A DNA stretch of 63,453 nucleotides, counting the filler, from Rozella allomycis CSF55 (lineage: Eukaryota): the NCBI GenBank assembly GCA_000442015.1. It is 13 parts of 13 records of this genome, joined end to end, with 100 filler letters (N's around TTAATTAATTAA, not from the genome) between each part and the next. Parts side by side here need not be neighbours in the genome. Positions count along the whole stretch, not along the records: positions 46,961 to 60,289 come from KE560608.1; 12 more parts are not named here. One strand, written 5' to 3'. The position numbers and the translations under genes were made by a program. Positions 2,101 through 51,052 of the stretch are shown piece after piece (the first letter of the stretch is position 1; each line of letters starts with the position of its first letter). Under the pieces are notes generated by a model, which was not told the DNA's origin, searched no databases, and was given only the letters and a program-made list of their open reading frames with translations.

Positions 2101-5100
2101 GGCCTTTGCACCAACAGCCCTGGGCCAAGGACAGAATGAAGCGATTTCACGAAAGGATGGAGACCTTTCAACAAGCAAGATGCCGTACTTGTCACGAAAT
2201 GTGGCCTACCCCTGCAGTAGTCCCAGACAACATGGCCGAATATGTCTGTCACAGATGCAAGAAGGATCCGATGAAATTCAGCCTTGAAAACGACATGCTT
2301 CCTAATCCTTCCGCCATTCCGTTGCGAATAAGAAAAATGCTGAAGAACTTGACACCAGTCGAAGAGATGCTGATTAGCCCAGTCCTTCCTATCATGGCTG
2401 TCTACAAGCTGCCTGGCGGACAATCCGTGAGCCGTGGATTCACAGCTAATTTCCGTCAAGATGTGAACGACCTCTGCAAACAACTTCCACGTCTACCGAC
2501 TTGTCTGCCCGTTCTGATTGGGCGTCGCCGTGGGCAACAGAATACATTGCGCGAATGCAAAGTCCGACGAGCCAGGTATGAGATGAATGACATCAATGAC
2601 AGAGTCCTGGCCGTTTTGGAGTTTCTTTGTGAATATCATCCACTCGTCCTTGCTCTCGGGATAGCCATCGAGCACGCAAATCTGTCGCAATTGCCAAAAG
2701 ACAATGTTCTAGACCTAGCTGCTTTAGAAGGCACCGAGGAAGAGATGGAGCAGCTGGATGACATTGCGCGACAAGATTTGGGACCAGAAATGGCTGACCG
2801 AATTCCATGAAGACGCCATGGCTTCTCTGTGCTTCCCCAAGCTCTTTCCCCTCGGAATGGCTGACCCTACACAGCACGCGCGTTTGCAGAAAGTGACAGA
2901 GAGCCAAGGATTTGACCAATTGCTGAGATACGCGGAAGACGATCCCGACAATCCTGACGCCATGTACTACCCGTTCGCCGAGCACTCCCGATTCATGTTT
3001 TGCGCAAATGACAGAGTTCGACGTCATCGCATTCTGTCGCAAAGCAAAATCTTTTTGAAGCAAAATCAGAATGAGGCGAACATGACAGTCGCGGACTTGA
3101 AGAATCTGCTTGGCAGCAATCAGGCATCCGAGTTGATGGATGCGAATGTCGGCATACTCAGCCAATATCACAGGATCTCAGTCATTTAGGTACCATCGGC
3201 GCGTTGAGTTGGAACACATTTTTCTGGAAAAGGTAATCGAGCAATATGCAACGACAGGAACTGTGTTCTGGACTGCTAGCTATTCAGATAATCACCAGAA
3301 TCATTGCCATCGCCTCATGCCTCTTGCAGCGAACACGGCATCTGAACGGTATCGAAATTGCCTGCGCAACCCCCACCTGGTTGACTGGTTTTTTGAAATA
3401 CGTTCGACGGAGTTCCTCAAAGCTCTCTTTGACGATGTTCTGAACGCAGAGTAGACTTGGTTTAGATACGAGTGGCAATCGAGGACTAGCATTCACGCGC
3501 ATGGAACCACAAAGTTCAAGAATGATCCCGGCTTGTGCGAACTGACCACAAAGGCATACGTCGGTCGCTTGATGGAAACTCGTAAGCCAATAACCCCAAC
3601 GCAGTTATCGATCCTACGCAACAAGAGGTGATCGACGCGGGTAAAAATTCATCGAACATTGTCCTGAAGTACGCGCAATGGCTTTTGACCGCCTCAAATC
3701 CCAGAGTAAATCGTGACGAGCACCCTGGTGGAGTACCAGATCCACACCCTTGCTCAAAACGGATTCTGGATATCATTGACGATGCCGCTGCAATGGCACG
3801 GGACTACGAAGAGCTCTGTAACTGTTGTCAAAGACATGTGTGTAGACCCGGAGGCTACTGCAAAAGGAAAAAAGCCCGCGTGAATGGCAAACCGAGTCGA
3901 TTCGACTATCACATGGATCTCTCCGATAAAGCGGAACTTGTCTTCATTGAAACCGACAAGTCTGTTCGGGCAGAGATACGCCTACCGCGTAACGATGAGA
4001 CTTTTAACATCCACAATCGCTTGCAACACCACCATTGGCGTGCGAATGTGGATATGCAAATCATTCTTGACAAACATGCAGCCATACGATACATGGTAAA
4101 GTATGCCAGCAAGGGCGAAAAGGAAAGCGGTCAACTCCAAGACGTGTACAACACTGTGAAAAGAAATGCTAAAGAAGACGATTCGATTCGGCGCACGGGA
4201 AGATGCGCTCACTGATGATAAAGTCTCTGGGCAACCGCGACATTGGAAAAGGAGAAACGTCGCGTCTCCTAATGGGAGGCAGCCACTACAAGTCGCCTTT
4301 CAAATTTACAAAGGTTAACCTGGATCTGGACAGCCGTCGTGTCAACTTGGAAGATGCCGACCCGAATGCCCAAGCCCTCTGCCCGTCAGTACTACAGATG
4401 TTGCCAAATGGAAAACGTTTCTTCTTCAAGCGGCACCTGATGTGCAGCGATACGCAGACTTCTCATTTAACTTGAACCAGCAGCTGGCGCTGGCGAGACA
4501 GGAAGGACAAGATGATGATCCAGCCGAGGCTGAGAACCTTTTGCTTAGAGACGATTGGATGAACTTGGCCGACATGCGTCCCGAGGTACATTTTCAAAAA
4601 TCACGTTCATCTAGATTGAACATGTTGAGATGAACGCACCTGCTGTTAATAATGACCATGACTGGCAAGCATCGCGACAAACCTATTCAGCTCGTGAACT
4701 AGCCGACATGCAAGGATGGCTCGAGAAACATAAACGAACGTCACCGGATGTAGATCGTCCTTTACCTCCAGTCAATAGGGAACACTTGAATGATGGCCAG
4801 CGTCGTGTCTACGATTTGTTGCAAGGTCACTTGTAAGGGAACAAGCAGCTGTTGATGATTGTCAATGGCATAGCGGGCACAGGAAAGTCACACACCGTCT
4901 ACGCCCTCTCCAATCTATTGGCTGACAGGGTCAAACGCTGTGCCTTTACTGCCAAGGCTGCTTACTTGATACATGGCTCCACCCTACACTCTACATTCAA
5001 GCTGCGACCCAACAAGCCTTTCACCAAGCTGAAAGATAATGCGCTTAAACAGCTTAAAGAGACTTTCAAGTATGTCACTACGATTATAATCGATGAGTAC

Positions 5101-6290
5101 TCCATGCGGTCGCAGGAACTCATCGGCTGCATCGACGCGAGATTGCGTCAAGCGAAGAATGCGCAAGATGTCCTGTTCGGTGAAGTGTCTATTCTCTTAG
5201 TCGGCGATCCAGCTCAACTTCTTCCTGTCGGCGGATCTCCTCTCTACTCGGACAATCCCAAGAAGCCCATTTCTACGGCTGGTCGCGACGCTTACGTTGC
5301 ATTCAAGAATGTTGTCAAGCTAGATCAAGTCATGCGACAGCAAAATTGGACGGCGACGCGCTGCAGCAGAAATACATTGTAAGCAGAAACAATAGACATG
5401 TTATTTAGGAACTTCTTTCACGTTTGGCCAATGGTGAGTCGACCGCTGAAGATTGGCGCGTGCTCTTGCCGTTGTCCTTCTGCTCTAAGTCAAGAAGAGC
5501 ACAACACTTTTCAAGACGCCATACGGCTGTTTAGCACGAATGAGAAAGTAGACGAGCACAATCAGCACCAGTTGAATGCGCTTGGCATGCCTATTATCAG
5601 GCTCACGGCGACAAACTCCAATTCTTCTGCCAGGAACTTAAGCTCGAGTAAGTTCAGAGGACTCGAGAATCATCTGTATCTGTGTAAGAATGCTGAAGTC
5701 GTGCTCACGACAAACCTGTGGATCCGAACAGGTTTGGTAAATGGTGCAAAGGGAATCATCAAGGACATCATCTATGCTCCAGGCGATGGTATGGATAAGC
5801 TTCCCAACACATTGCTTGTGCACTTCCCTGACTACGCAGGGTCGCGGTTCTTTCCAGACGAGGCGCGAAGAAACTGGATCCCGATGTCTGTATTATCGGC
5901 GGCTTGTGACTACGGTAGCAACATGAAGAGAATTCAGTACCCATTTCGCCTGGCATATACAATGACGATCCCCAAGGCTCAGGGCCAGACTCTCAAGAAG
6001 GTTGTCGTCGATCGCGGTGACAAGGAAATGTCACTCGGTCTCTCTTTCGTGGCTATATCACGTGCGAAACGCTTGAAGGATATGATTATCATGCCCATGT
6101 CCTTTGACCGTTTAACAAAAATCAAGAACTCCACGTCCATGGGCCCTCGACTTAAAGAGCAAAAGAGGCTTGATGAACTAGTCGCTTCTACACAGCTTCA
6201 GTTTCAAATGCAATAGTTTAAATACACTCGACAGCGTGTCACAACAACTTTAAAATTTATGATTCAGCTTGCTGAATTACTTTTATCTAA
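2101..6290 (+). mobile_element. Helitron, degenerate RepHel (HUH Rep + PIF1 helicase), 5' end lost in gap
   Basis: VEEMLISP motif; WFRYEWQSRTSIHAHG (HUH); YMVKYASK (Y2); GIAGTGKS, IIIDEYSM, GDPAQLLPV, AQGQTL, VAISR helicase motifs; many frameshifts/stops; visibly more GC-rich than host genes. Confidence 0.92.
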
Positions 6291-6325
6291 ACCGGCGAAG
6301 CTACGAGCATCGCTCAAAGTATCTT

Positions 6326-7085
6326 ACTACCTTAGTTTGTTCCGAATTTAGTTCTTGAATCTTGAAAGTCGTCGATCCAAGTTTCTCAACAACTCTAAAA
6401 GGACCATAAAATTTAACTTTTCATTTCTTTGCTATTTGAGGATTAAAATCTTTTCTTTTTAAATCTATTCGAGCTTTCATTAATCGACTCTTATAGTCAT
6501 TCGTTTCTTTAACATTATTTAATAAATTCTGCATTCTATTAATTAAATTTAATTTATATTCCTCAATATTTAATTCCTTCCCCTCCCAATTTTGTTTCCA
6601 AACATCCAGCGGAGTGCGAGGGTCTCGACCATGACAAATAAAGAAAGGAGTATCGCCAATAGTGGGAACCACACTTACGCGATATGAATATAATATTGGA
6701 TCAATATATTTATTCCAATATCCTTTTTCGTCGTTAAGTAGGATTGTTAGAGCGTCTCCAAGGTAACGATGGAACCTTTCTATCTTGCCGTTTCCTTGAG
6801 GGTAATAGGCTGCTGTACGACTAGTTTCAATTTTTAATTTCTCACATAAATATTTAAAAACCTTCGACATAAACTGTTTTCCTTGGTCAATATGAAATGA
6901 ATTTTACCAAACAGTCTGACACGTTTCTTGCTTCAATTTTCGACAAGAGGTAGGCTACAGGCCAACGTGAAAAATTATCCAGCATAGTCAGAATATATTT
7001 ATTCCCATTTTTACTTTTAGGAAAAGGACCTAAAATATCCATATGCACAAAATCAAAAGGTTGAGAAGGAGACATTGCTTGAAGA
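6326..7085 (-). mobile_element. Ty3/Gypsy LTR retrotransposon integrase fragment, degenerate
   Basis: PFDFVHMDILGPFP, DNFSRW, DQGKQF, YYPQGNGKIER, and C-terminal FYGPFRVVEK (GPF motif); frameshift near 6887 and stop at 6421. Confidence 0.92.
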
Positions 7086-7086
7086 G

Positions 7087-7117
7087 TTAGGGTTTAGGAT
7101 TAGGGTTAGGGTTAGGG
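7087..7117 (+). repeat. Interstitial telomeric-type repeat (TTAGGG)n
   Basis: ttaggg t ttagga ttaggg ttaggg ttaggg. Confidence 0.8.
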
Positions 7118-7625
7118 GCAACGCAACTCCGCCAATGAAAATTAAAACTTAATTAAANNNNNNNNNNNNNNNNNNNNNNNNNNNNNNNNNNNNNNNNNNN
7201 NTTAATTAATTAANNNNNNNNNNNNNNNNNNNNNNNNNNNNNNNNNNNNNNNNNNNNACTGTGAATATCATTCCGCATGGCACATTATTACATCCACATG
7301 AACTCCCATATAATAACATTCACATAATAATCAGGTAATCAATCATTCCGCATGATACTTTGCTGCACATTATTAATAACCAGCTGCGAAATGTGTTTTA
7401 AGGTTAACCCTATATTAAATACCCCTGTCAAAGAAATGATTACAGAGGAAGACAGTGGATTGAAACTCGAGGATTTAAAGAAAAATTTTATTTAAATTTG
7501 AAAACTACTATTTTTTCACCAAAGAGGATTGGGCTGCAGGCCTTGGACTAGCAGGACGTGCTATCTACAATAAGCTCAATTCAGCGAGTAAAAAATCAAA
7601 GTTAGAATAATAATTAGGCATTCCA

Positions 7626-12834: not shown

Positions 12835-15800
12835 TTAATGTCTGAATTTTCTGACATGAGCAATAAAACTTTCGTCTGGGCCACGTCTTTGGTATTCTGA
12901 ATCAGCTACATTAAAGTAAGAACCTAGCATGAAAGCGGCAGATCTAAGTTTAGTCCAATTTTGTCCAGAAGCTAGGCTAGCATTTGAAATAATAGATGGT
13001 TCATCATCTTTGGGATGTAAAATTTCCAGGGCTTCCTTTTGTTCAAATGGTTTGGTAAAAGTGACCATTGTTAATCCACGGGTTACATCACGTGTTACGT
13101 AGAGATTATTTTGTTTTACAATATCATCTAAAACTTTGGTTTGTTCATCCAACAATTGCTCTTCTGGAATAGTTTGCATTTGCTTCACAAGCATTTGATC
13201 TTTTTTACTAAAGTATCGTTTTAAAAAGAAATTAGAAATACTGACCAAACCCATGACAATGCATCCAGGTATCATACAAAGAAGCCATTCCTGCCACGCA
13301 GTCAATGGGAGTGTGCTAGCTACTTGGCCTCCAAACATTACAAAGAGAACTTGAACTATTGAAATAATTATAATGACCACAATAAATATTTTGTTTTTGA
13401 AGAAACCTCTAAGACTGTTTACACGGAAGTCCAAAAATCTTCCAGTGAGAAAATTAGCTAATTGTAGGCAAATAAAGGTAGTAAACACCAAAGTAAATAT
13501 TTTCTTGTTATTAGCAACTGCGGGAATGGATATATCGTTTAAATTTATGACACTATAATCTAATGAAGGAATGCCAAGTATTGAAGGACCAGCAAACAAA
13601 ACAATAACGAGACTTGTAACTTGAAGTATGACCTGTATGATGATATACGAAAACATATCGCGTGAGATAAGAGCACCTGATCGCTTATGCGGCGGATGTA
13701 GAAGAATGTCCTCATCTGGTTCATCTGAAGCCAGGGCTAAAGCGCCAAGACTATCCATGATAAGATTTACCCACAAAAGTTGCACTGAAGTAAAAATAGA
13801 GTTTTCAACACCGATAGAGCCGATTATAACGATTGTAATTGCAACGATATTGACTGCCAGTTGAAATTGTAAAAATTTTCTCACACAATCCATGATATTT
13901 CTACCCCAAGCAATAGATCTAACGAAAGAAGCAAAGTTATCATCCAGAAGAATAATGTCAGAAGCATTTCTAGCAATTTGAGTTCCAGCTTGACCCATAG
14001 CGAAACCAACGTCAGCTTCTTTGAGAGCAGGTGCATCATTAGTGCCATCGCCAGTTACACCCACAACATTCCCCATCTTTTTAAGTAATCTAACTAATTC
14101 AAATTTATCTGTTGGAGAAGATCTGGCAACAACTTGAACTCTGGGCAAGATGGTCAATTTGTCTTCCTCACTTAAAGCTCTAAATGCAGGCCCTTTAAAC
14201 TATAACTAGAATGTGTTACCTTCAATGGCTATTCCATTTCCATATAAAATACCGCATTCTCTGGCGATATACGACGCTGTTAAAACGTTGTCTCCAGTTA
14301 CCATTCTAACAAACAAACCCGCAGTAAGACATTCTTTAACAGCTTTTGGGACTTCTTTTCTTAATGGATCTTTAATGCCAAATATTCCTACGAATGTTAA
14401 ATCATATTCAGGTGTTCCAGATTCTTCATTGTTAATGTTTTCTTTTCAATTAAAAATATTCTTTTACCAACTTCTTTTGGAATATCTTTAAAATCTTTAA
14501 ACGCAAGGGCTAAAGTTCTTAATCCCTGGCCAGCCCATTGATTTATAGTTGTTTTTAAAATCTCAATTTCTTTTTTTGTGATTTTTCTTTCAATCAACGC
14601 ATCATTCTCACAGGTTAATATTTTATCACAAAGATCAACAATGATTTCAGAAGCACCTTTAGTCAACAATCTATATTTCTTATTTTCTGAATCTATGTAT
14701 TTTATTTTAGATGGGGTTTCAATTTCAATCAATGTGCTCATTCGCTTTCTTGCAGAGTTAAATGCAAATTCTCCTCCAGGAACTTTCTTGCATAATTTTC
14801 TCATCGCTTCATAATCAACACCGAATTTTTGACTAAAGACTAACAAGGCTCCTTCTGTTGCAGATCCAACAAACTTTGGTAATTTCTCGCCTTCTGTTGA
14901 CTTTACAAAGCATGTGCTATTCAAACAGATCCCTTCCATCAAAACACGATACATTGATTCATTCAATTGTGTTTTATTTTGATACTCTGGAGCATTCGGA
15001 TTATTCATAGTGACCTTACGATCGTTAAGATTTCCGCCCACTGGCTCATCTTTTTCATTTATCGAAATAAAATGCGATTCATCACGGGGTTGCCATTCTT
15101 CAGAGACACTTGTGGCAAGGTATGCCTTGACGACTGTCATGCGATTCTCTGTTAACGTCCCTTTGATTTTCCTATACAAGTGTTACCTTTTTGCATACAT
15201 AGAAACAAATATATTTACCTGTTTTATCTGTGCATATACACGTAGCTTCACCCATTGTTTCGGAAGCACTCAGGTGCCTTACAAAGCAATTATCTTTAAT
15301 CATTTTAAAGACTGAAAAGGCAAGTGAAATAGTAACAGCTAATGGAAGCCCTTCAGGAACAGCAACAACTTGAATTCAACATACAAAAAATATATACCAA
15401 CAATTGTTACAGCTGTCACAAAGAAATGTAACAAATCTTGAAGCCTTTTCACTTCAAAGTTGTTGACATTAACTATCAACCACCTAATTACAAGTCCAAC
15501 AAATGATACTATCGCAGCAGCCATTCCTATATACCCTATTTGAACAGCTAAAACTTTAAGCTTTCTTTGTAGAGTTGTTTCTGACTTTTGTAGTTCATTT
15601 AAAATTGCTTGTATTCTCCCTGCTGACGACGAAGCACCAACTCCAGTAACAACCATCAAGCCAGTCCCTTCAGATACTTGGCAACCAGAGAACATAAATG
15701 GTTTATTGATATTCTTCTTGCATAGTATAGTCTCCCCAGTCAATGGACTTTCATCAACCGCAACATCTCTTTGTTCCTCGACTTTGTCTGTGAATTCTCC

Positions 15801-16547
15801 ATATCTAATAAACAATCCATCAGCCGGTATTTCATCCCCAGGATTAACTTGAATTATATCTCCAACAACAATATCCCAAGTTGAAATTTGATCAATCATT
15901 CCATCACGAACAACCATTGCCTTTTTATCAGAAGACAACAACAAGATTTTTTGGAATTTCTTTTCTTTAGAATAATCATTCCCACTAGTTACAAATAGCA
16001 CAATGAAAATTGCAATGGTAATGGCTGTTCCTTCATACCAACCTTAATAATGATTTCAATCCAATTGATACCTTTTTCAATATCAGTAGAAATACCCACA
16101 GCCAATGTCACAATGGCTCCGACAATAAGAATTTGAATGATTCTGTCCTCTTTCACAGTCTCCCAAACTAAGCCAAGGAGGGATGTTTGAGGAGGAGGAG
16201 GTACCACTGAATTGATTTACATGAAATAAATATACCATTGCTTCCAAAAGCCTTTCTTCTTTGTGCTATCGATCGTGGATCATCATCCGTCATGGTACTA
16301 TTCAAACCGAAATTGGGTTTCACATTAAGTAACTCACAAACGCCTATTGATCCGCCATACTTTGATTGAAAGTTATCAACGTGCTCCTTTGAATCCCGCA
16401 AGTCAAAATTGACCGCCTCTATCAACCTTTTAATGATTTTACCTCGGCCAATTGTTCTTTGCTAACTCGAATGAAATCTTTGGTATCAATTGAAATTTCG
16501 ACTTGTGCTATTTTGGATTCTAAAATTGGCTGCGAGTCTTTCAGCAT
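12835..16547 (-). CDS. PMC1: P2B-type (PMCA/Pmc1) calcium-transporting ATPase, multi-exon
   Basis: [29 protein letters not shown] (split by intron), [38 protein letters not shown]. Confidence 0.95.
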
Positions 16548-17975: not shown

Positions 17976-18661
17976 ATTCTCTTACCTTCCTTAATCACAA
18001 ATCGATATCCCAATTTTACTTTCCTGTATGGAATTACTTTCACTATTCAAAATTAAATTTACCTGTCGTACCATTCTCATCCCCACCCGTTTCCCGTAAA
18101 AATCCTGGTAATTTTTTCCGGTAATTTCCAAAACGTTTTACCGTAGAATTCTCCAGAGAATCATAAAACCCTATTATCCCGAGAATTCCCAAATACAAAA
18201 ATGAAATACCTGAGAGGTGGATTTAATATCAGCGGGATAAAGCGTGGATTGAGAATCATTAGAGTTAAAGAAAATGATGCACTGAGGCACTCCAAGAANA
18301 ATCATTAGAGTTAAAGAAAATGATGCACTGAGGCACTCCAAGAAACAAAAGAACGAAAGATGACAGACCGGATGACAGACAAAAATTCAGAAAACCTTAC
18401 AGAAGCTCAGAACGCGGTTGAGTTGAGACATGAACACNNNNNNNNNNNNNNNNNNNNNNNNNNNNNNNNNNNNNNNNNNNNTTAATTAATTAANNNNNNN
18501 NNNNNNNNNNNNNNNNNNNNNNNNNNNNNNNNNNNNNAAGTCGTCATACACCAAGACATTCATTGAAAGATAATGAAATTTCAAAATTAAATGTACAATT
18601 CTATTGTGTCATTTAGCTACTTTGTATCAAAAGGCTAAATTTTCTGAAAAATACATTTGAA

Positions 18662-19333: not shown

Positions 19334-20782
19334 TTATTGGGCGAATTTTCCTATTAGTAATGCAAACATCATGAACAAACTAAAAATACAAAGGGCCATG
19401 GCGGTTATTCTAGTAATTGTATTTTTCTTTTCTGAGATGACAAAAAGGGCACAGGGAAACATGATAGAAATAAAGTTAGATGCAGTAGCGCCTGTCAATT
19501 CAACCAAAAGATCAATGCTAGTAGCGACCATAGCCAAACCATAAGTAGTAAGTGCTAAGCCCAAACTAACAACAATTCTTGTACGACTTTCATTCCAGAA
19601 ATGAGATTTTATGACATTTTCAGAAGATAAAACTTTTTCAAATCCAGCATTTTTGCCGTCCTTAGAGCTTCGATATGACTTGTATGCTTTGACCAAAGAA
19701 AAGAAACTATCTCTCATTGGATGAGTTTGATTTGGATAGCAAGTTGTAACAAGAATAATCAAGCAAAGACGTCCAATAAGTAAAGAAATGAGGTTTGGAT
19801 CATAAGTTTTCAAAATGACAGAGAAAGAATACGGAAAAAATTCCGGGTCTGGGCTAGAAGCATAGTCTGCGAAAATCATTTGATTGGAAGTTTGAGAACC
19901 AAGTGTCAAGTAACCGAATATACCAACAATTAAATAGACACAACCAGCAAACATAGATGAGAATATTGCAGATAAAGTTCCTCTTTGTATCGACCTTGGC
20001 TCGCTTAATTCGTTGTAAACCTTGAACATATTTTGTTGACAGGTAAATGCAAAAATTAAATAAGACATGCAGCTTAGAATTCCACCAAATGACAAATCAA
20101 TCTTTTTTGTTCCAATGTTTTCAAACAAGCTCAAAGCATTTAAACCAGCATCTTTGAATCGCATAACAGCATAAGTGACAACCAAGCAGAAAATATACGT
20201 AATCATCATAATAGCAAGATAACTTGTATAGCGTAATGAACGGAGACTCTTTAAAGTAGAAAGAAAAGCAACAAAAATGAAAAACAAGGAAATCCAAAAT
20301 TCCCTTCTTTCCAGAATTGTATTAGCGATGGTACTTCCAGAAATAGCAGCTGCGTCGTTTACAATCTTTGGCATATTGCTTCCGATTAACACCAAGTAAG
20401 ATGTAGCAACACCAAAGGCCTGGATCAAAACAAAAGCATCTACAAATTGTTTGCCCATAGGGAATTTCACTCTGCAGACTTCAGCAAAACTCGTATTTCT
20501 TCCGCCAACAACTTCAGCTAATCGCAGGATTAATCGAAGTGTGAAAACTGCTAATATGATTCCGAGGAAAGTGATAAAGATTCCAGCGTATAAACCGACT
20601 TGTTGATAAGCGTATGGGATAGTTATAAGACCTGCACCGATCATGGTGTTGATGAGTGAAAGTGTTCCAGACAAAACTGTTCCTTTAGCGTCTGTTGACA
20701 TTATTGTATCATCGGACTTGTTTGCGCTGGACATGGAATGAATTTCCGGATCTCTTATAGTTGCTTTGACTTGTTCTTTCAT
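19334..20782 (-). CDS. AAAP/AVT-family amino acid transporter (Avt5/6/7-like)
   Basis: LINTMIGAGLITIPYAY, FAFTCQQN, multiple TM helices; start placed at MKEQVK, ORF extends upstream to 21037. Confidence 0.9.
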   Translation of the reverse strand: MKEQVKATIRDPEIHSMSSANKSDDTIMSTDAKGTVLSGTLSLINTMIGAGLITIPYAYQQVGLYAGIFITFLGIILAVFTLRLILRLAEVVGGRNTSFAEVCRVKFPMGKQFVDAFVLIQAFGVATSYLVLIGSNMPKIVNDAAAISGSTIANTILERREFWISLFFIFVAFLSTLKSLRSLRYTSYLAIMMITYIFCLVVTYAVMRFKDAGLNALSLFENIGTKKIDLSFGGILSCMSYLIFAFTCQQNMFKVYNELSEPRSIQRGTLSAIFSSMFAGCVYLIVGIFGYLTLGSQTSNQMIFADYASSPDPEFFPYSFSVILKTYDPNLISLLIGRLCLIILVTTCYPNQTHPMRDSFFSLVKAYKSYRSSKDGKNAGFEKVLSSENVIKSHFWNESRTRIVVSLGLALTTYGLAMVATSIDLLVELTGATASNFISIMFPCALFVISEKKNTITRITAMALCIFSLFMMFALLIGKFAQ

Positions 20783-22337: not shown

Positions 22338-23184
22338 CTAGATAGAAAAACGAAAACTTTTAGAGCCAGCGGATCGCAAAAATTTTGGTTTATTTAGTTG
22401 GCCGGATCGCAAGTTTCCAAATTTCATATGTACAATTGGTGTATCTTTTGGTAGTCGGATAATCTCGTATCGGTGTTCATCGAGTTCGGGTCTTGTATTG
22501 TTTTCGTTGATTTCGTTCAAGATGGAAAGACGTATATCTTTGGCGGTTGAATGCTTTGAATAGAGTTTGTTGAGGTATGCTGATATCATGTCTGAAAGGA
22601 TCTCCCGGTCCAACTTTTCATAGTCTGCTGGAATCACATTGGTATCTACGAGATATGACAGAAACTTCGTATCTTCTCTCTCCACGTCTTCATCTTCATC
22701 GTCATCCTCTTCAGTAATGTTTTCATTGGTATTATCAAAATCCTGTTGTCCGTCTGGCGACACATTAAATGGCTCCGGGGTTATCGTCTTTACTTTTCGC
22801 GACTCAACAATCATCAACGTACCAACCCATATAGTAAAAAACCCCGTTATCAATTCCTTTTCTTGGACTTCCGATATCAATCGTGCAAACAGTTCCATTA
22901 CTTTCAAATCCATGAAATGTCCCGGAAAGATTGCTGAAACTAGTCGCCTCAAACCTGCAGCTTCATAGATAGTCTTTAAAAGTCGNCGGTCCCGGAAAGA
23001 TCGCCGAAACTAGTCGCCTCAAACCTGCAGCTTCATAGATAGTCTTTAAAAGTCGGGAATTTACCGCAATTTCTCCATTGTCTGGGCTCGGGGAGTTGCC
23101 GCCAATCTTTGAAAGTGACGAATTGGCGGGCATAGAGTATATGGCAGTTAAGAGGACAATTAGGATTAGTAAAATATGTTTCAT
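22338..23184 (-). CDS. Secreted acidic orphan protein A, copy 1
   Basis: Signal peptide MKHILLILIVLLTAIYS-MP; near-identical to 23827-24603; N-joined duplicate at 22986. Confidence 0.7.
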
Positions 23185-23826: not shown

Positions 23827-24603
23827 CTAGATAGAAAAACGAAAACTTTTAGAGCCAGCGGATCGCAAAAATTTTGGTTTATTTAGTTGGCCGGATCGCA
23901 AGTTTCCAAATTTCATATGTACAATTGGTGTATCTTTTGGTAGTCGGATAATCTCGTATCGGTGTTCATCGAGTTCGGGTCTTGTATTGTTTTCGTTGAT
24001 TTCGTTCAAGATGGAAAGACGTATATCTTTGGCGGTTGAATGCTTTGAATAGAGTTTGTTGAGGTATGCTGATATCATGTCTGAAAGGATCTCCCGGTCC
24101 AACTTTTCATAGTCTGCTGGAATCACATTGGTATCTACGAGATATGACAGAAACTTCGTATCTTCTCTCTCCACGTCTTCATCTTCATCGTCATCCTCTT
24201 CAGTAATGTTTTCATTGGTATTATCAAAATCCTGTTGTCCGTCTGGAAGTACCGAAAATGACTCCGGGGTTATCGTCTTTACTTTTCGCGACTCAACGAT
24301 CATCAACGTACCAACCCATATAGTAAAAAATCCGGTTATGAAATCCTTGTCCTGGACTTCCGATATCAATCGTGCAAACAGTTCCATTACTTTCAAATCC
24401 ATGAAATGTCCCGGAAAGATTGCTGAAACTAGTCGCCTCAAACCTGCAGCTTCATAGATAGTCTTTAAAAGTCGGGAATTTACCGCAATTTCTCCATTGT
24501 CTGGGCTCGGGGAGTTGCCGCCAATCTTTGAAAGTGACGAATTGGCGGGCATAGAGTATATGGCAGTTAAGAGGACAATTAGGATTAGTAAAATATGTTT
24601 CAT
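23827..24603 (-). CDS. Secreted acidic orphan protein A, copy 2 (258 aa)
   Basis: Intronless ORF; signal peptide then MP; acidic tract EEDDDEDEDVE. Confidence 0.8.
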   Translation of the reverse strand: MKHILLILIVLLTAIYSMPANSSLSKIGGNSPSPDNGEIAVNSRLLKTIYEAAGLRRLVSAIFPGHFMDLKVMELFARLISEVQDKDFITGFFTIWVGTLMIVESRKVKTITPESFSVLPDGQQDFDNTNENITEEDDDEDEDVEREDTKFLSYLVDTNVIPADYEKLDREILSDMISAYLNKLYSKHSTAKDIRLSILNEINENNTRPELDEHRYEIIRLPKDTPIVHMKFGNLRSGQLNKPKFLRSAGSKSFRFSI

Positions 24604-24746
24604 CTTTCTAATCTCCTGTGGCGGTGTCTATCAATAACTATCAAAGTGTCAATCGAATGGTGGCTTGGGCGATCTCAGTTTTCGGGTCCGAGATATCATT
24701 ATTCAATAAATAATTAAAAGTTATTGATGCTTTTGCTATGAGTTTA

Positions 24747-34188: not shown

Positions 34189-34267
34189 TGCCAGTGAATT
34201 CTTCACTTTACGATATTTCTCAAACCTGTAAACCAAGACTAAGTTACTAGAAACCAAAGAATATATT

Positions 34268-34588
34268 TTATTTTGTTATATACTTTGATGAGAAATGCTT
34301 CTTATTTACTCTATAGAATGTAAACCCACCAATAATTGACCCAAGGATGACTAATGTTCCAAGAACTCCTCCCACTAACATAATTATGTCTTCCTCTTTA
34401 TTTTGATCTTCTTCTTTGGGAATCAGTTCGCTTCCTTTAGCATCTTTGATTCCAGATTTCACTAGTGCTATTTGCGTATGCTTGGAGGAATTCTTTAGAG
34501 TATTGGATTTTTCAACCCCCATGTGCGGCGGTGACGCTTTGAGCTCGTAGCAAAATGTGACGAAAATTAATAGAAATGCAAATTTCAT
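34268..34588 (-). CDS. Small type I membrane orphan protein
   Basis: Signal peptide MKFAFLLIFVTFCYELKA, one TM helix IIMLVGGVLGTLVILGSIIGGFTF, basic tail. Confidence 0.7.
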   Translation of the reverse strand: MKFAFLLIFVTFCYELKASPPHMGVEKSNTLKNSSKHTQIALVKSGIKDAKGSELIPKEEDQNKEEDIIMLVGGVLGTLVILGSIIGGFTFYRVNKKHFSSKYITK

Positions 34589-35202: not shown

Positions 35203-36371
35203 ATGATTTCATTCCCCATGAATCGCACTCCTACAGCATACTTTCATTTGAGTACAATGTTGCAAAGAGTTGCATGTAATAATTTGTCACCCGTGCCCGG
35301 CTCTCGCAAGAGTGTAATTTTCGTCATTCTTTTCAATTAGAAACGCCCTAGGGGAAAAAGACATGGGAGAGGAAATAAAGGTGCAAAATCAAAATCGGGC
35401 AATAGTGTACCAAGAGGTTTTGAGGGTGGTCAGTCACCATTACAAATCACTTCTCCCAAATGGATCACAGACAAGATGGTGAAAGAAAGAGGCAAATGCA
35501 AAGAACTTGCACTTGGTCATTTGCAATACCTAATAAACAATGGAAGGCTTGATCCCTTCAATAAAATTGATTTAAGGGTTTTACGCAGAGCCGGTGTAAC
35601 GAATGCAAGTTCGACAAAGAAGTTGTTAGTGACAGGAAGAGTACAATTATTATATTAAGTTAGGATAGGATGGAAGTTTTTTACAAACACCACTAACAAT
35701 AGAAGCCCATGAGTTTGAAGAAGATGCAATCAAAAGAATTGAAGAATTGGGTGGTTCAGTAACAGCAGTTCATTTACCTCCTCCATCAGCAAGAGCACTA
35801 TTATTTCCGGATAAATATGATGTATTAAAATATATTTTGTCTTAGTTAGAAAAATACATTATTTGCTGCACCTGTAAGTAACAAGGAACGAATTACATAT
35901 TTTTCGTGGAAAAAGAGAGGTTATTTGTCACCACCTAAATTGTATGAAAATATTACGAATTTAGAATTCCTAAAACGATATGTTATTATTCGACCAACTA
36001 AAAATTATGTTTTAGTTTATCCTTCATTGGCCCAAGAATATGACGACCTCGGTATAGATTTGGACTCATTGCCTTTTGCTGACCAGTTCTACGATGATCA
36101 AAAGATAATCATTGAGCGCGTGGAGAACATGAATAAGACTGGTACCTTCGATGAGAAAATATTGAATTATTTGCCAAAAATGAAGAATCCCCCATTAGAT
36201 AAAATGAAAAATTTGCATCCTGAATTGTTAAACTGGTTATTAGAGTACAAAAACAAATATTTGGCGGAAATTCAAGAAAAGAACGAAGAAATTCGCAAGA
36301 GGCAAGAAAGTGAAAACGAGGAGCTAGGAGAAGGGTTTAAATACTTCGTAAAGTCTGAATCAACAAAATAA
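35203..36371 (+). CDS. Mitochondrial ribosomal protein uL15m, multi-exon
   Basis: NNLSPVPGS, GRGNKGAKSK, RGFEGGQSPL, LQYLINNGRLDP, AIKRIEELGGSV. Confidence 0.85.
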
Positions 36372-36399
36372 ATTTAAAGTTTCCATCCTGACAAATTTC

Positions 36400-37458
36400 A
36401 TGAAATTTAGAAAAACAAAGTCTTTTCCCCTAAAATTGGCCATTACCCTGATTCTCACTGTTTTAATATTAATTCAACTTAATATTAATAGCAAAATAAA
36501 AGTTGGCGAGTACAATATTGAAAACAGGTATGAATCATCGCAAATTGATGTAAATGACACCACTGAACAATTTTCACGCGTTTCAAGCTACCTTCGAAAA
36601 TTTTCAAAGTCTTCAAAAGAAGTATTCTTAACGGATGAAGAATTTAGAATATTCCTTAATAGTAAATTCAATGGAACCGGATTGCTGCCGTACAAAGGCC
36701 GAATGCTTTACAACAGCAGTGATATTTTATTTATTGTCATGGGCTCTAAAGCTAAGAGACATCGATCAGTTATAGCAAAAAACACGTGGCATCAATGGGC
36801 TGAAAAGATCATCATTTTTGGTGATGAGATGGATCTTAACATCAATATGGTAACTCTATCAGATCTAAAAGGGAAATGGAACTATACTGACGCACAACAT
36901 AGACAACTTAAGGGAATGAAATGGTTACATGAGAATCGCACTAATCTCACAAAAACATGTAAGTGGATCATGCTTGTAGATGATGACACATGGGTAAATG
37001 TACCTGCTACAATCCACTTTTTGTCACAATATGATTCCCGATTGTTGACAGCTTTTGGCTACATTTGGGATAAACTTTTCGAAAAGGATGAAGCATTTCA
37101 TAGCGGCGGTGCCGGAATTATACTTTCATATCCGGCGTTTTCAAAAGTTTCAGACTCATTGTACACTGACAAATGTCCTTTTATGGATTGGAATGACGTC
37201 ACAATAGCCAACTGTCTTTATCGCACTGGTGTATTTAAAGTGCATGTAAACAGGATGCATCCGCTGAAGCCTAGTGAATTAGACTTAAGGCAAATGTTGA
37301 ATTTTTATCCTGAATTAACAATTCACGCCATAGAAAATGAAGATCTCTATGTCAACTTAACATGCGAAGCCGCCTTTCATTATCACTATCCCGTTAATAA
37401 CAATCTCTGCAATAAATACATTCCTCATTCCAATAGAATAAACGCTATGATTGATTAA
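36400..37458 (+). CDS. Fringe-like GT31 glycosyltransferase, paralog 1
   Basis: N-terminal signal anchor; KWIMLVDDDTWVN; HSGGAGIILS; NDVTIANC. Confidence 0.85.
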   Translation: MKFRKTKSFPLKLAITLILTVLILIQLNINSKIKVGEYNIENRYESSQIDVNDTTEQFSRVSSYLRKFSKSSKEVFLTDEEFRIFLNSKFNGTGLLPYKGRMLYNSSDILFIVMGSKAKRHRSVIAKNTWHQWAEKIIIFGDEMDLNINMVTLSDLKGKWNYTDAQHRQLKGMKWLHENRTNLTKTCKWIMLVDDDTWVNVPATIHFLSQYDSRLLTAFGYIWDKLFEKDEAFHSGGAGIILSYPAFSKVSDSLYTDKCPFMDWNDVTIANCLYRTGVFKVHVNRMHPLKPSELDLRQMLNFYPELTIHAIENEDLYVNLTCEAAFHYHYPVNNNLCNKYIPHSNRINAMID

Positions 37459-38182: not shown

Positions 38183-39288
38183 ATGAGACATACTTTCGCG
38201 ATCATCGTATATATCATACTATTTATTGGATTAAGTTTATTATATTACAATAAATTCAAAATTAATAAAGTAAAGACATTTATGTCAATTGATTCAAGGA
38301 TTCCGATTTAGCTCTATTGAAACTCAATGAAACCAATACAAATAGAGTAAACATTCTTTACAATTGGGAGGATTATTTTGTACCAGGGAAGAGAAGTTTG
38401 GCATTTGATATTCCATCTTCAATAGTGTTTGTTTCACAAAAGCTCTATAGAATCGCGAAACAATCAAAAAGGTCTTATTTGCTTGATGTCGATCTCAATT
38501 ACCGTTTAAATCATGAATTAAATGGAATTGGAATGATGGATCCAAATTTCTTGAAGATAAATGAAATAATGTTTATTGTAATGGGTTCCAGTAGAAACAA
38601 AGAAAGAATTCTGAACCACAAAAAATTTTGGTATAAATGGACCGACAATATATTTATTTTTGGAGATGAAAGAGACGAAGAAACTGGCATGATAACTCTA
38701 CCAGAACTGAAAGGGAAACCAACACTCGCAGATGCTCAGCATAGGCAATTGTATGGCATGAGATACATTTTAGAAAACATGCCCCATTTAGTTGAAAGAT
38801 GCAAATGGTTTGCTTTAATTGATGATGACACTTGGGTAAATATACCTGCTATTGTCCCGTATCTGGGAACGTATAACCATCTTCTTCCTGTTGCCTTCGG
38901 CTATGTCTGGGATAATTTACATGTTCCCGAAATCGCATTTCTTGGTGGCGGCGGTGGAATATTCTTGTCTAAAACTTCTTTTATACGGGTATCGCAAGCA
39001 TTGTACTCTAAAAGATGCTATTTTTGGAGTGCAAATGATCTAACTATTTCTAATTGCTTATACGAATTAGGAATTCTCAAAGTACATTCTTCTCTCTTTA
39101 ACTCGGATCCGCCAAATTCAATCTATGGCAGGCAGATATTTGATCTAGTCACTAAGCTAACATTCCATCGAATAGTGTCCCTCGAAAAGGTAATGGCGTT
39201 AACATGCGAGATGTCCTTACATTATCATTATTATCTAGACAGTTGTGTAAACTATAGATCCACCTCTTTTGTATCCCAGATATTATGA
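38183..39288 (+). CDS. Fringe-like GT31 glycosyltransferase, paralog 2
   Basis: Exon 1 signal anchor MRHTFAIIVYIILFIGLSLLYY (alt ATG 38174), intron 38270-38298 joins in frame; KWFALIDDDTWVN; GGGGGIFLS. Confidence 0.85.
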
Positions 39289-41789: not shown

Positions 41790-42286
41790 ATCGGAATTTT
41801 CGTTGATCTATTTTTATATACAGTGCCTGATAAATCAACAAAGTCAACAAAGAGTAAGCGAAATATAAATAATAAAAGAACCCTATCACTTATCGGGTGA
41901 CTGAATCAACAGTTGCCAAACCCACTACACCAAAAACTAACGAAAGTTTGAGATTAATACAAACGTGATACTTCTTTATCGTGCGGCTGATATTGCACAT
42001 AACGTATTAATCTTTCGCCTTTTACTAAAGATTACCGTGTGTAGTGTTACTAAGGCCGCTTAGTAAAATTTGTGGAGCCCTTTAAGGGATTCTTTTAGTT
42101 TCTTAAATTTGCAACTTTCCTTTTTTGGCAGAATTCATCTCAAAAGCAACAAGTCTCGCAGTGCTCGTTAAATCGGACGGGGAGTTNNNNNNNNNNNNNN
42201 NNNNNNNNNNNNNNNNNNNNNNNNNNNNNNTTAATTAATTAANNNNNNNNNNNNNNNNNNNNNNNNNNNNNNNNNNNNNNNNNNNN

Positions 42287-46860: not shown

Positions 46861-47030
46861 NNNNNNNNNNNNNNNNNNNNNNNNNNNNNNNNNNNNNNNN
46901 NNNNTTAATTAATTAANNNNNNNNNNNNNNNNNNNNNNNNNNNNNNNNNNNNNNNNNNNNAACTTAATAAAACTTAATAAAACTTAATTAAATATAAAAA
47001 ATTTTCATTCATAAAAACTTAATTGATACA

Positions 47031-50000
47031 TTAATTCAAAGATCTTTTGGGATCGTTCATTCGAATAATTCTGACATTTTTAGACTGAGGAATAGTGCTA
47101 ATTGAGATTGAGAGAGTGAATTACCTAAAGTCTTGAGGGGAGATGAGAACGTATTGAACTTTGTGGAGGGAGCAGTAATCAATTAGAAAAGAGATGCTCT
47201 GTCTTCTGTTTACAGCGTCCTATCAGTGTGAATTTAAAGTATTACCATGAAGACGTCGAATTCGTCTAAACATCTGAGAGGCGATGACATTGTTCCCCAT
47301 AGAGAGAGTAAGAGACAAACTGTTGAGAATGATTTTTCGCCGCCTGAAAGAGATCGAACACCTAAATGAAAAAGAATGTTTAAAGAATACCTAAATGAAA
47401 AAGAATGTTTAAATGGTACCTATATTAACAAATATACTCTAAAGATACCTATATTAACAAAACTTCTAAAGAATACCTATATTAACAAAACCAATAAAGA
47501 TTACCTTTTCGTTTGTTCCCAGATTGATTATTCTTTTCTTGTTCACTAACATAAACTTGAATCTGCATTTTGCCAACCTTGTCATCAATAGGATGAACAA
47601 ACTTAATATTTCCTTTAAAAGAATACTAGTTAAACATTACCATAATAGCCTCTTTCAGCCATGTGTTGATGAAAGCTTTGCCTAGCCATTAAAGCCATTG
47701 AAGTTCTCATCTTGTGCCATTTAGAGTCTCTTTCTTTAATACTTTTATCTAGATAGTTGATTTTGTTTATTGTTGAATCTAAAACTTTAACAGCATCAGA
47801 ATATTTGGATTGAAGATTTCTTAATTTTTCTGTGATTTCTTCAATTGAAATTTTGTGTTCTTTTTGTAATTGATGAACCCTTGCTTCTAATCTAACAATT
47901 TCATCTTCAATTGCATTTGATGGTTTTCCAACAAATCTCTCTTCACAAACAGACAATGCTTTTTCTTTCATGTCTGCAGATTCTAATTTTAATTCTTTTA
48001 ATTGATTTTTGATTGATTCATTTAAAGTTTTATTTTTTAGAAATTGAAGATTGAAATTTTCTTTTTCTCTTTGAAATTTAGTAATTTTCTCAATTAAGAT
48101 TTGTCTCTTTTCTAGAATTGATTTTCTGTTTAATTCTTTCAATTTAATTTCCTTTTCAATGTTTTTTAATTCTAAATTTATTTCATTGTAATCTTTTTTC
48201 TTTTCTCCAATTTCTAACATTGTTGCTCTTCGTTGTTGTTCCATCAACTTTAATGATTCATTCAAGTTCTAATAGATAAAATATAATTAATCTACTTGCA
48301 AATTTTCTTTCATTGATAATAATTTAGAATTATCTTCAACAGAATTCAAAATATTTTCAATTTTTTCTAAAAATCTATTTCTGAAATTTCATAAATTACC
48401 TAGATTATTTTCAAGTTTATTTAATTCATCTTGCAAAGATTTTACATTTGATTTTAATTGATTTTTATTATTTCTTAAATTTTCTAAATCTTTTTTAATT
48501 GAAAATAAATCTCTTGAACAAACTTTTTCTTTTTCTATTTCAGAGTTCAACTTTTGTTTCTTTTGATTTAAAATTGAATCAAAATTTTTAGTGATTGGAA
48601 TAATTCTATTTGGTTTCAACAATGGAACTGTTAAATCAGCTTCAATTCTCAATAAATTATCTTTGGAAACTGAAAAATCAATAAATTTAATCCCTTGTCT
48701 CATCAACGTTGCTGCTTCTTTTCTTGTTTGGAACATTCCAATTCTTTCTATTTTACTATTCAACTTTAACGCCGATTCTACAATCTCATTCGTTATTTTC
48801 AAATTTCTTTTTATTGTTTTAACTTGTGATGATGGTTCATATCTACTTGTATCCAACAAATCATTAAATTTCATAACAATCACACTCGCTTGATAATTAC
48901 ATCTCTCAAATATCTTCATCAATTCCATCTTATCATAATGATTATCAACTGCAAAATTTCTCATCTCTCTTCCAATCACACACTGGATCACATCATTCCA
49001 CTCTTCATCTATAATCTCAACAAACGCTCCAAACGGTCCAACTGGCTTCTTATTAAACTTTCTTCCTTCTATCATACTCAACACCTGCTGACATTCCCTT
49101 CCAAACCTAGCCATTCTATTTTTAGAACTCTCACTCAAATCTTCAACATCTCTCTTCAATGCACTAATCTGATCTCTAATTTCCCTCGTCATTCTCTCTG
49201 CATTCCTCTCTTCTCTCTCCTTTTCTTCCACTCTCGTTTCAACCTCAAACAACTCTTGCTTCTTACTCGCAATCTCCTTCTTCACCATCTCTATCCTCTC
49301 ACTAACCATCTTCTTTTCTTCATTCGCCTTGTTCTTCACACTCAAATTGTTTTTAGATTCCTCTGCTGCAATTGATTGCTCAATATTCTCAACTCTCTCT
49401 TTATAATCTTTAATCTTCATATCACACTCCTTTACATTCTCAATCATCCCCTTGATTTCAATTCCAATCTCTCGCTTTCTACCCTCCACTTGGCTCTTCT
49501 TCTCCTGCATCGGCTCAATAACCCCAACACTCTCTTCATTCTCTTCTTCTATCCCCTTCATCTCCTCCTCAATCTCTTTAATTCTCTCTTCACACTTATC
49601 CACCCTGCTTCTACTCAAAATCATCTCCTCCTCCTGCTTAATCATCTCAGCCTCCAGTCTCTCCATCTCCTTCACCTTCTCTTCATACATCGCCCATATC
49701 AAATCATCCTTCTTCCTCTCCAACTGCTCATTAAAATCATAAATCTCCTGCATCTGCTCATACTGCCGCTTCGTACTCTCATACTCTTTCTTCAACGCCT
49801 CAAAATTCTTCTCCTTCAACTTTATCTGTCCCTGCATCTGTGCCATCTTGCCCTTTAGAAAATCTATCCCCTCCTTCCACGTCTGCAGATTAGACGCCTT
49901 TAGAAAAAACTTTCATCCATTACATTCCCTCTTACCTCGTACTTTTTTTCTTCAGATGAATCCTGCAAAAACTGTTTCGCCGTTTCCTGGTTCAACACCA

Positions 50001-50756
50001 CCAACGGGTTATCAACCACCAAGCCAAAATAGTTGCAAATTCCATTCACTTCATTCTTCCCCGTAGAAACAACATTCCCTTTCAAAACCAATCTCTTATC
50101 TTACCATTCGAATTCCGCGTCTTGAACACAGTCCCACCATCCCTACTAATCCTTCTCTCCACACAAATCTCATCTCCATACTCATCCCTCTTATACCCAT
50201 CCTCCCCTCCATTATGCAGCCATATCCTACCCAATCCACCACACACCCTTACCTCACAACAGCACTTACACATCCATCCTTTATAAAATCAACAACCTTC
50301 TTCGCCCTCTGCGTCCCAGCAGCCCTCCCGCCCAAACACACAGTTATCGCAGTAAGCACAGCACTCTTGCCACTCCCATTGTTCCCACATATAAAATTAA
50401 TCCCGGATATAAAATCAGCCTTGAAATTCGAATGACACATGAAATTCTCCATCTCTATACTCTTCAACCGCCCACTCATATCGTCCTTGACCATCTCAAT
50501 TACAGCAATTCGAATAGCTTACCTTGCGCGTGGATTGCTGCTGGATCTCAGATTCTATGTCGATGCGGAAAAGATCGTTTATGTCGGCAACGTCAAATTC
50601 TTTGTCAGCGACGGCTACGCTTTTCGGCATTTGCGAATCGTCTGGAACTGATTCAGTGTCCGAATGCGCACGCTTCTTTTGGCTTGATATCGTTGCGCGA
50701 CGCCGCTTTGATGGGCCTGCTTCGAGGGATTCTTCTTCTAAACGCTTTTTAGGCAT
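47031..50756 (-). CDS. SMC6: Structural maintenance of chromosomes protein 6, multi-exon
   Basis: [23 protein letters not shown] hinge, [22 protein letters not shown]. Confidence 0.95.
47362..47504 (-). repeat. Five tandem 28-29 nt units, each GTA...TAG, forming one SMC6 intron region
   Basis: Units 47477-47504, 47449-47476, 47420-47448, 47391-47419, 47362-47390. Confidence 0.9.
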
Positions 50757-51052
50757 TTAGGATATTTACAGAATGGAGATTTTAGGCGGCAATAATGTTA
50801 TGAAATGAAGAATGGAAAGAATTTTAATAAATTAATACTTTTCAAATTTTAGTATAGAAACAATCATAAAGCCAAGGTATCTTGTTTGGATTTGTAAAGT
50901 TGTAAACACTAATAATTATTTCTACTTAAATAAATAGACGAAGGAAATTTGAACATTTATTGGCATTTGAATATACCATTATAACTATTAAAGTCAGCAT
51001 ATTCTTTTAGTAATCACAACAATTCAACTTCCTGAAATTTCAAAATCACGTC

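Follow-up and report, generated by a model that had tools for sequence, protein, structure and literature searches.

Recursive splicing at ratchet points has been reported for Drosophila Ubx and about 200 other sites, and also for long human introns (bioRxiv 10.1101/006163). In its zero-nucleotide-exon form, an AG/GT lies inside the intron, ligation recreates a donor, and piecewise exit of the intron becomes possible. Here we describe a 63,453-nt stretch of the genome of Rozella allomycis CSF55, a parasite of the water mould Allomyces (assembly GCA_000442015.1; the whole stretch analyzed is called the window below), in which the SMC6 gene contains an intervening sequence with internal joints of this kind. 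On the minus strand, positions 47504..47362 (143 nt) are split by four internal AG/GT joints into five abutting units, each resembling a complete tiny intron. All four joints read AG/GTA, with an acceptor and a donor juxtaposed within the intervening sequence, as expected of zero-nucleotide exons. The known recursive cases, as their reports describe them, are very long animal introns (tens of kb) composed of unrelated segments, usually with one or a few ratchet points. In contrast, the SMC6 array lacks a kilobase-scale host intron: it totals 143 nt and consists of complete introns of normal size, which are repeated in tandem and vary in number between samples, and the use of its internal sites is predicted only. 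We propose that the array is a tandem repeat whose unit is one complete tiny spliceosomal intron, located at a single phase-1 site of the essential SMC6 gene.

Multiplication of introns by duplication has precedents. A gene with differing numbers of identical introns in a repetitive region has been described, for which slippage, gene conversion or unequal crossing-over was held responsible (PMC2395259). Intron gain by tandem duplication, as formulated in the AGGT model and illustrated by Cryptococcus CNN00420 and potato RdRp, resembles the present case in that duplication makes spliceable introns and their copy number can be polymorphic (PMC2395259, PMC4974935). Signs of such a gain are seen in the SMC6 array, which has no counterpart in 78 of 80 distant orthologous loci and varies in copy number. 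In the Cryptococcus gene, according to the report, six introns are numbered separately and three are alike (PMC2395259); coding sequence thus lies between the copies, and the protein presumably changes. Conversely, the repeat unit of the SMC6 array is the intron alone, with zero-length exons between copies, and the protein would stay constant at any copy number.

Stwintrons and other complex intervening sequences of fungi provide a second comparison. They are described as several U2-type introns at one position, removed by consecutive reactions, and in Lipomyces starkeyi removal in one reaction or in two is given as the alternative (PMC7138796). In a stwintron, the internal intron interrupts the donor, branch site or acceptor of the external one, which becomes functional only after the first splice. 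This reading was rejected for the SMC6 array, where a GTA donor and a TAG acceptor are present in every unit ahead of the first splice and no signals are interrupted; the abutting units are complete from the start, and they could be removed in any order. Zhuo and colleagues reportedly described, in 2007, human introns that stem from tandem arrays, in which the repeats contain splice sites and allow many alternative donor-acceptor pairings. Those arrays are said to produce alternative splicing in non-essential contexts, and their units are said to be unrelated to genome-wide intron size.

The SMC6 units also recall the introns of genomes with a sharp length mode below 30 nt, reduced motifs and early stops in retained introns, such as those of Paramecium, Nyctotherus, Stentor, mikrocytids, myxozoans and dicyemids (PMC13644364, PMC10245619); in mikrocytids, introns measure 16-17 nt (PMC10245619). 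The parts of these surveys available to us mention no tandem arrays of whole introns and do not name Rozella, which is related to fungi. Likewise, no description of whole tiny introns placed head to tail was found among the matches listed in a literature search that covered titles and abstract openings, with subscription journals outside its scope.

The SMC6 array and its removal

The gene spans 47031..50756 on the minus strand, with its start codon at 50756 and a TAA stop at 47033..47031, within a draft contig (KE560608.1) that occupies positions 46961-60289 (13,329 nt). Its identity as SMC6, assumed in the preliminary description, is confirmed by comparison with solved structures. For the exon segment 47246-47359, five SMC6 chains ranked first (E 2.8e-13 to 5.5e-07), ahead of SMC4, SMC1 and SMC5, which matched at E 0.01 or weaker; in the best match, residues 2-38 of the exon align to residues 985-1021 of the SMC6 chain 9lwi_A (E 2.8e-13). 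A longer C-terminal piece matched SMC6 at E 4e-27, compared with 8.7e-07 for SMC5. The N-terminal Walker A stretch GNNGSGKS is present in our reading, and the domains precomputed for the public SMC6 protein are PF13476 and PF02463. The two middle exons, of 507 and 212 residues, matched no Pfam family and are read as putative coiled coil from their position and composition. The longer one gave no relatives in a near-length protein search, and the shorter one gave none in a metagenome scan. The 507-residue exon has no in-frame TAA, TAG or TGA and, because it holds no in-frame stop of any kind, the standard genetic code applies. A public R. allomycis CSF55 protein of 1068 residues matches the 212-residue exon (47633-48268) with 100% identity, and a second record from this strain, of 1130 residues, falls within the 90% cluster of that protein.

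Direct reading of the sequence bears out the array of five GTA...TAG units with four intact joints. Unit 1 (47477..47504) and unit 2 (47449..47476) are 28 nt long, and unit 3 (47420..47448), unit 4 (47391..47419) and unit 5 (47362..47390) are 29 nt long; all lie on the minus strand, begin with GTA and end with TAG. The upstream exon (47505..47612, minus strand) ends one base into a Gly codon, which gives the phase of 1, and its residues are common to both public models of the protein. The downstream exon (47246..47361, minus strand) encodes the ABC signature motif LSGGE and the Walker B / D-loop stretch.

The size of the units was judged against a reference set of 21 introns, 13 obtained by a rule joining open reading frames (ORFs) and eight read directly in SMC6. 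The rule yielded 17 unique short candidates, of which four were excluded, namely a 37-nt candidate and three from the GC-rich contig 2101-7157. A GTA start was required by the rule for its 13 introns, and the eight SMC6 introns, read independently of it, also begin with GTA. In this set, 26 nt is the commonest length (eleven introns), followed by 27 nt (six), 28 nt (three) and 25 nt (one). A standard length of 28-29 nt in the window, as originally supposed, is therefore not borne out: the reference introns range from 25 to 28 nt with a mode of 26, and 26-27 nt is usual. GTA..TAG pairs are nevertheless still in excess at 29 nt in the length histogram of the window. As read, the SMC6 introns measure 26, 26, 26, 25 (or 34), 27, 28, 143 (the array), 26 and 27 nt; the array is thus about five times the norm, the other eight being 25-28 nt long. 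Attempts to find long non-composite introns by joining ORFs gave output too noisy to be of use, and the 37-nt candidate, at 34283..34247, is unverified. A published account mentions, for R. allomycis, putative introns that measure about 30 nt and contain premature stops (PMC6349667), and intron medians of 29-197 bp are given for a fungal set that includes this species (PMC8042348).

To express the quality of the splice signals, we used a matrix built from the first 7 and last 10 positions of the reference introns, with each real intron scored after being left out. Units 1 to 5 score 12.3, 9.9, 9.0, 7.2 and 9.5, respectively, and the left-out real introns score 5.2-14.1 (median 11.0). For 1937 GT..AG decoys of 25-30 nt, the median is 2.3 and the 95th percentile 10.0. 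All five units thus fall inside the range of real introns: unit 1 lies above 17 of the 21, and unit 4, which has the weakest signals, near the lower end.

The repetitive nature of the array is apparent from several measures. A period of 29 was obtained with Tandem Repeats Finder, with 76% matches over 4.4 copies and 96% for the last two copies. The units are direct repeats arranged head to tail with a start-to-start spacing of 28-29, and their borders coincide with AG/GT. In a MAFFT alignment of the five units, 15 columns are invariant (GTA, a T-rich core and the last bases), and most variation lies in mid-unit, in agreement with the earlier statement that the units have diverged internally while the AG/GT junctions are intact. 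Chains of five units did not occur in any of 50 block shuffles, and chains of three occurred with a mean of 0.04 per shuffle. This non-randomness is what tandem duplication yields, and hence it is no independent evidence of function. The array does not fold better than shuffled sequences (minimum free energy −17.4 kcal/mol, z −0.59), by which a structured RNA was rejected, and Rfam gave no match at the locus. A mobile element was also rejected, the units having no further copies in the window.

The reading frame constrains which products of the array can be translated. None of the 31 unit subsets that could be retained leaves an open frame; ten have an in-frame length yet contain stops. A single retained unit brings the first stop 3-9 codons past the exon end. 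Five single GT..AG excisions keep the frame open, including that of all 143 nt, and a consensus donor is found only in those that start from the GTA of unit 1.

We propose that each unit is recognized as an ordinary intron of preferred length and removed singly. Successive splices would recreate the next donor, which amounts to recursive splicing across zero-length exons, and occasional jumps over several units are to be expected. Any donor-acceptor pairing would leave a shorter array of whole units and, because every joint is AG/GT, no dead-end product should arise. Incompletely spliced messages would all carry an early stop codon. In short-intron organisms with intron-defined splicing, the nearest compatible acceptor is normally used. 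Unit-wise removal would be the default expectation in such a system because each internal site lies at the preferred distance from its partner. We regard unit-by-unit removal of the SMC6 array as somewhat more likely than not.

A second composite intervening sequence was found in the window, at 15161..15218 on the minus strand. It is 58 nt long, consists of parts of 32 and 26 nt with an internal AG/GTA joint, and splits the invariant DKTGT phosphorylation motif of a plasma-membrane-type calcium ATPase. The upstream exon, which ends with DKT, aligns to residues 428-477 of PMCA1, and the downstream exon (GTLT) starts at residue 478. Retaining either part closes the frame. The two ATPase units are unrelated (59% identity) and score 10.7 and 7.1. 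The probability that a random 58-nt sequence of intron-like composition tiles in this way is 0.023; it is 0.060 when only AG/GT is required. The intervening sequences longer than 36 nt that were verified by homology in the window are thus both chains of intron-sized units (2/2), a count with n = 2 and made post hoc.

Multi-unit introns with internal AGGT, for which the preliminary description suggested a genome scan, were sought within the 63-kb window: the scan produced the 58-nt composite intron, and two-unit chains overall stayed at chance level (five observed and 8.0 expected from block shuffles). Among the other candidates, the two-unit chains at 16095..16043 and 14252..14193 were rejected, as the first "unit" of each is coding sequence. 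A plus-strand chain at 20015 is antisense to a minus-strand transporter gene, and a minus-strand chain at 18019 has short flanking open frames; both look like chance and were set aside.

It is possible, although unlikely in our estimate, that the array is instead one ordinary 143-nt intron, in which the donor at 47504 pairs in a single reaction with the last branch site and the acceptor at 47362, and the internal joints are remnants of duplication, unused or rarely used. The outer sites are good, unit 1 having the best score of the five (12.3), and the 143-nt excision is among the five that keep the frame. The results set no upper length limit for introns, the ATPase gene contains an intervening sequence of 58 nt, and copy-number variation would be tolerated equally well if only the outer sites mattered. 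Conversely, the internal sites are at the preferred distance and score in the real range, and they would have to be actively suppressed if all of them were to be ignored, against the usual choice of the nearest compatible acceptor. None of the 21 reference introns falls outside 25-28 nt, and the only other verified long intervening sequence, that of the ATPase, is also tiled by intron-sized units, with the chance given above.

Copy-number forms and origin of the array

The number of units differs between samples. The runs listed as containing the locus included none of RNA. We compared four coded runs (X1, X2, X5 and X6), taken from four studies and available as k-mer contigs rather than raw reads, with the kind of run guessed ("DNA?"). 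The contigs are DNA, because the other short introns of the gene are retained in them. In X6, the array is bridged by a contig of 1213 nt that lacks 27 nt at 47447, which gives a four-unit form of 116 nt. The same run contains a 59-nt contig (depth 5.9) that aligns twice on unit 3 (47417-47446), and 59 nt is the size expected of a perfect 29-nt tandem with 31-letter words. In X1 and X2, loose ends of 14 letters at 47417 repeat unit 3's own letters. Together, the 59-nt contig and these loose ends imply forms in which unit 3 is duplicated in tandem.

In X1, X2 and X5, the flanking contigs end at 47359 and begin at 47510, and there is a short contig that links 47363 with 47494. The length of this joining contig is listed for X5 alone and is 124 nt there, of which 46 + 34 letters are aligned, with no loose end reported. 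The unaligned 44 letters most likely sit between the aligned parts, which would correspond to an array of two units, about 57 nt in length. The depth of this contig (58.5) is comparable with that of the flanks (48.6 and 41.3), and the bin covering the reference array has a depth of 4.2, a low value that we used only together with the bridging contig. In X1 and X2, the array bin is covered at depths of 409.8 and 971.2, and 85% and 84% of the sampled words are present, respectively. The exact order of the five-unit form rests on the reference assembly and on word content, because no X1 or X2 contig spans it. Judged from these contigs, the locus behaves as an intron minisatellite whose step is one intron, with forms of 143, 116 and about 57 nt and one with a duplicated unit 3.

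A more skeptical view is that the five-unit form is an assembly artefact or an unexpressed defective allele, the functional allele being the form with about two units. We consider this quite improbable. It would agree with the lack of a spanning contig in X1 and X2, with the dominance of the short form in X5 (58.5 compared with 4.2), and with the nature of the window, which is a chain of 13 short draft contigs joined by N44-TTAATTAATTAA-N44 linkers (e.g., 2001-2100 and 46861-46960) and containing scattered single N; no feature should be read across these joints. However, the independent 1213-nt contig of X6 bridges four contiguous units, and X1 and X2 both cover the array bin at the depths, and with the word content, given above. 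By inspection, no identical stretch common to different units reaches the 31 letters of the index words, and collapse of the graph should not invent joins. Moreover, the short forms are themselves multiples of intron-sized units, which leaves the phenomenon in place.

We propose that the array originated from an intron with AG/GT on both sides, through slippage or unequal exchange between these short repeats. Later slippage or exchange between whole units would add or remove exact intron-sized units, which would explain the differing unit numbers in the DNA of different runs. The register of the repeat extends 6 nt into the downstream exon, where five of the first six bases match the first six of unit 5. 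Such an overrun is what a staggered duplication across the AG/GT border would leave, although a match of 5/6 bases is weak evidence.

The preliminary description derived all units from tandem amplification of one intron. This derivation stands within two subfamilies: units 1-3 are 83-86% identical to one another (unit 2 is 86% identical to both unit 1 and unit 3) and units 4 and 5 are 90% identical, all above the maximum of 78% found between unrelated introns. It does not extend to the comparison between the subfamilies, where identities of 62-76% are at background level (mean 62% and 95th percentile 74% for unrelated introns). The array may therefore represent two different abutting introns that were each amplified, giving 3 + 2 copies, or one old duplication that was followed by recent ones.

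Reading frame, orthologues and balance of evidence

The two public models of the R. allomycis protein both retain part of the array. In one of them, 14 residues are derived from it: 13 nt of unit 1 and 28 nt of unit 5 are kept, and 101 nt are excised from a GTT donor. In the other, 23 residues are derived from it, 11 nt of unit 3 being kept together with units 4 and 5; by our own decoding, this model uses a 56-nt and an 18-nt intron.

To place these residues in the context of the family, metagenome contigs were scanned with the full public protein, which gave 80 distant SMC6 loci with 22-29% identity. At 56 of them, a single alignment spans the array site; the remaining 24 alignments start at or just before the first post-array residue. 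The distance from the ERGYYG anchor to LSGGE in the 56 spanning loci is 28-68 residues, with a median of 30, and does not exceed 39 residues in 51 of them. In R. allomycis, it is 38 residues after full removal of the array, compared with 52 and 61 in the public models. None of the 56 loci has a counterpart of the 14 or 23 array-derived residues, and all 23 inserted residues of the longer model face gaps in 26 of the alignments. The position of the array is uninterrupted in 78 of the 80 loci, counting the 56 spanning alignments and 22 of the other 24, in which there is no intron at the site because the frame is open for more than 780 codons upstream. The two further loci, with only 17 open codons upstream, were left out of this count.

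Full removal of the 143 nt is therefore the reading that fits the SMC6 family, and the two public models are probably in error here. The earlier claim that all 143 nt must be removed is sustained by the absence of any open product among the 31 partial ones and by the collinearity with orthologues; yet it is not trivial, given the five excisions that keep the frame. That the array is partly coding, with an insertion of 14 or 23 residues in the loop before the signature motif, is very improbable: each public model has an open frame and GT..AG introns, the excision of 101 nt in the 14-residue model is one of the five that keep the frame, and the length of the region ahead of LSGGE ranges across orthologues from 28 to 68 residues, but the two models contradict each other for the same strain, the longer one needs an intron of 18 nt when the shortest reference intron has 25, the shorter one uses a GTT donor when 21 of 21 reference introns start with GTA (13 of them by rule), the inserted residues fall in an unaligned stretch of the solved-structure alignment (query 38-79 against human 965-983), and the anchor distances and gaps described above favor the shorter loop.

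In two of the metagenome loci (L004 and L007), about 20 additional residues of odd composition were observed upstream of LSGGE. They look like a read-through intron, which would lie roughly 20 codons before the Rozella position.

Several points weigh against the reading of the array as a multiplied intron that is removed unit by unit. Unit 4 has a low score, with only three of the 21 real introns beneath it, and three of the units have 29 nt, one base more than the longest reference intron. Identity between the two subfamilies, units 1-3 and units 4-5, is at the level seen for unrelated introns. The full five-unit form is not covered end to end by any contig of X1 or X2, the variant forms were read from k-mer contigs of runs whose kind was guessed, and the best-matching runs may be the assembly's own data. 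In 63 kb, only one further composite intron was found, and this was done post hoc. Finally, none of our results supports an upper length limit of this spliceosome, and removal of the 58-nt ATPase intron in one step, if it occurs, would mean that longer introns are tolerated.

A broader scheme can be put forward tentatively. In this scheme, the Rozella spliceosome would gauge intron length, and intervening sequences longer than about 35 nt would exist only as chains of abutting tiny introns that are removed unit-wise. Introns would multiply in place through AG/GT slippage, as "intron VNTRs" (variable number tandem repeats) that are invisible to the protein and free to drift. We regard this generalization as possible rather than likely. 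If it is true, the five-unit SMC6 array and the double intron of the ATPase, with its two unrelated units, are two stages of one process, and short-intron genomes have a route by which to rebuild long introns.

The array is of wider interest for several reasons. The narrow range of intron lengths in tiny-intron genomes is an open question, for which an array with alleles of other unit counts provides a natural test. Such a test would distinguish a mechanical limit, with obligatory unit-wise removal, from a mutational one, in which removal in one step works. The locus also indicates that introns can multiply at one site without touching the protein, and the idea of intron gain through tandem duplication is thereby widened to include zero-length exons. 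For annotation, both public models place 14 or 23 probably spurious residues beside the ATPase signature motif, and gene finders need a rule for abutting introns. In addition, the array is a variable marker that could be applied to the typing of Rozella strains.

Other features of the window

Some further observations concern the SMC6 gene and its surroundings. The public SMC6 models differ from the present reading at several other tiny introns as well: for example, residues after introns 3 and 4 are omitted, and the N-terminal exons differ. The 27-nt intron at 48295..48269 has an AAT insertion at 48274 in the contigs of all four runs, which would bring it to 30 nt in those forms. At the end of the SMC6 contig (46961-46996), just downstream of the stop codon, there are three copies of a 10-nt repeat. 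A neighboring gene encodes an ABC1 kinase.

A full-length gene for the U5 spliceosomal RNA was detected at 41982-42090 on the plus strand (83.1 bits), and could help in studying how tiny introns are handled by this spliceosome. Two tRNA genes (53755-53825 and 53833-53904) lie 7 nt apart within 53755-53904 on the minus strand.

The contig at 2101-7157 has a GC content of 46%, compared with mostly 31-36% in its neighbors, and ends in TTAGGG-like repeats. Judged by reading of their sequences, the ORFs in it resemble those of a PIF1/Helitron-type helicase and of a retroelement integrase. The contig may represent a transposon-rich chromosome end, or host or contaminant DNA.

The minus-strand ORFs at 22341-23009 and 23830-24627 have identical last 30 residues, which suggests a recent local gene duplication. 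Two neighboring Fringe-like glycosyltransferase paralogues occupy 36352-37455 and 38293-39285 on the plus strand; for the Fringe-like gene, the most similar named match is in R. allomycis (49%), and other named matches are in rotifers and green algae. At 56109-56213, a 52-nt segment is directly repeated with 94% identity and a spacing of 53, with an N at the joint (56161), and this repeat represents either a genuine duplication in tandem or a stutter of the assembly.

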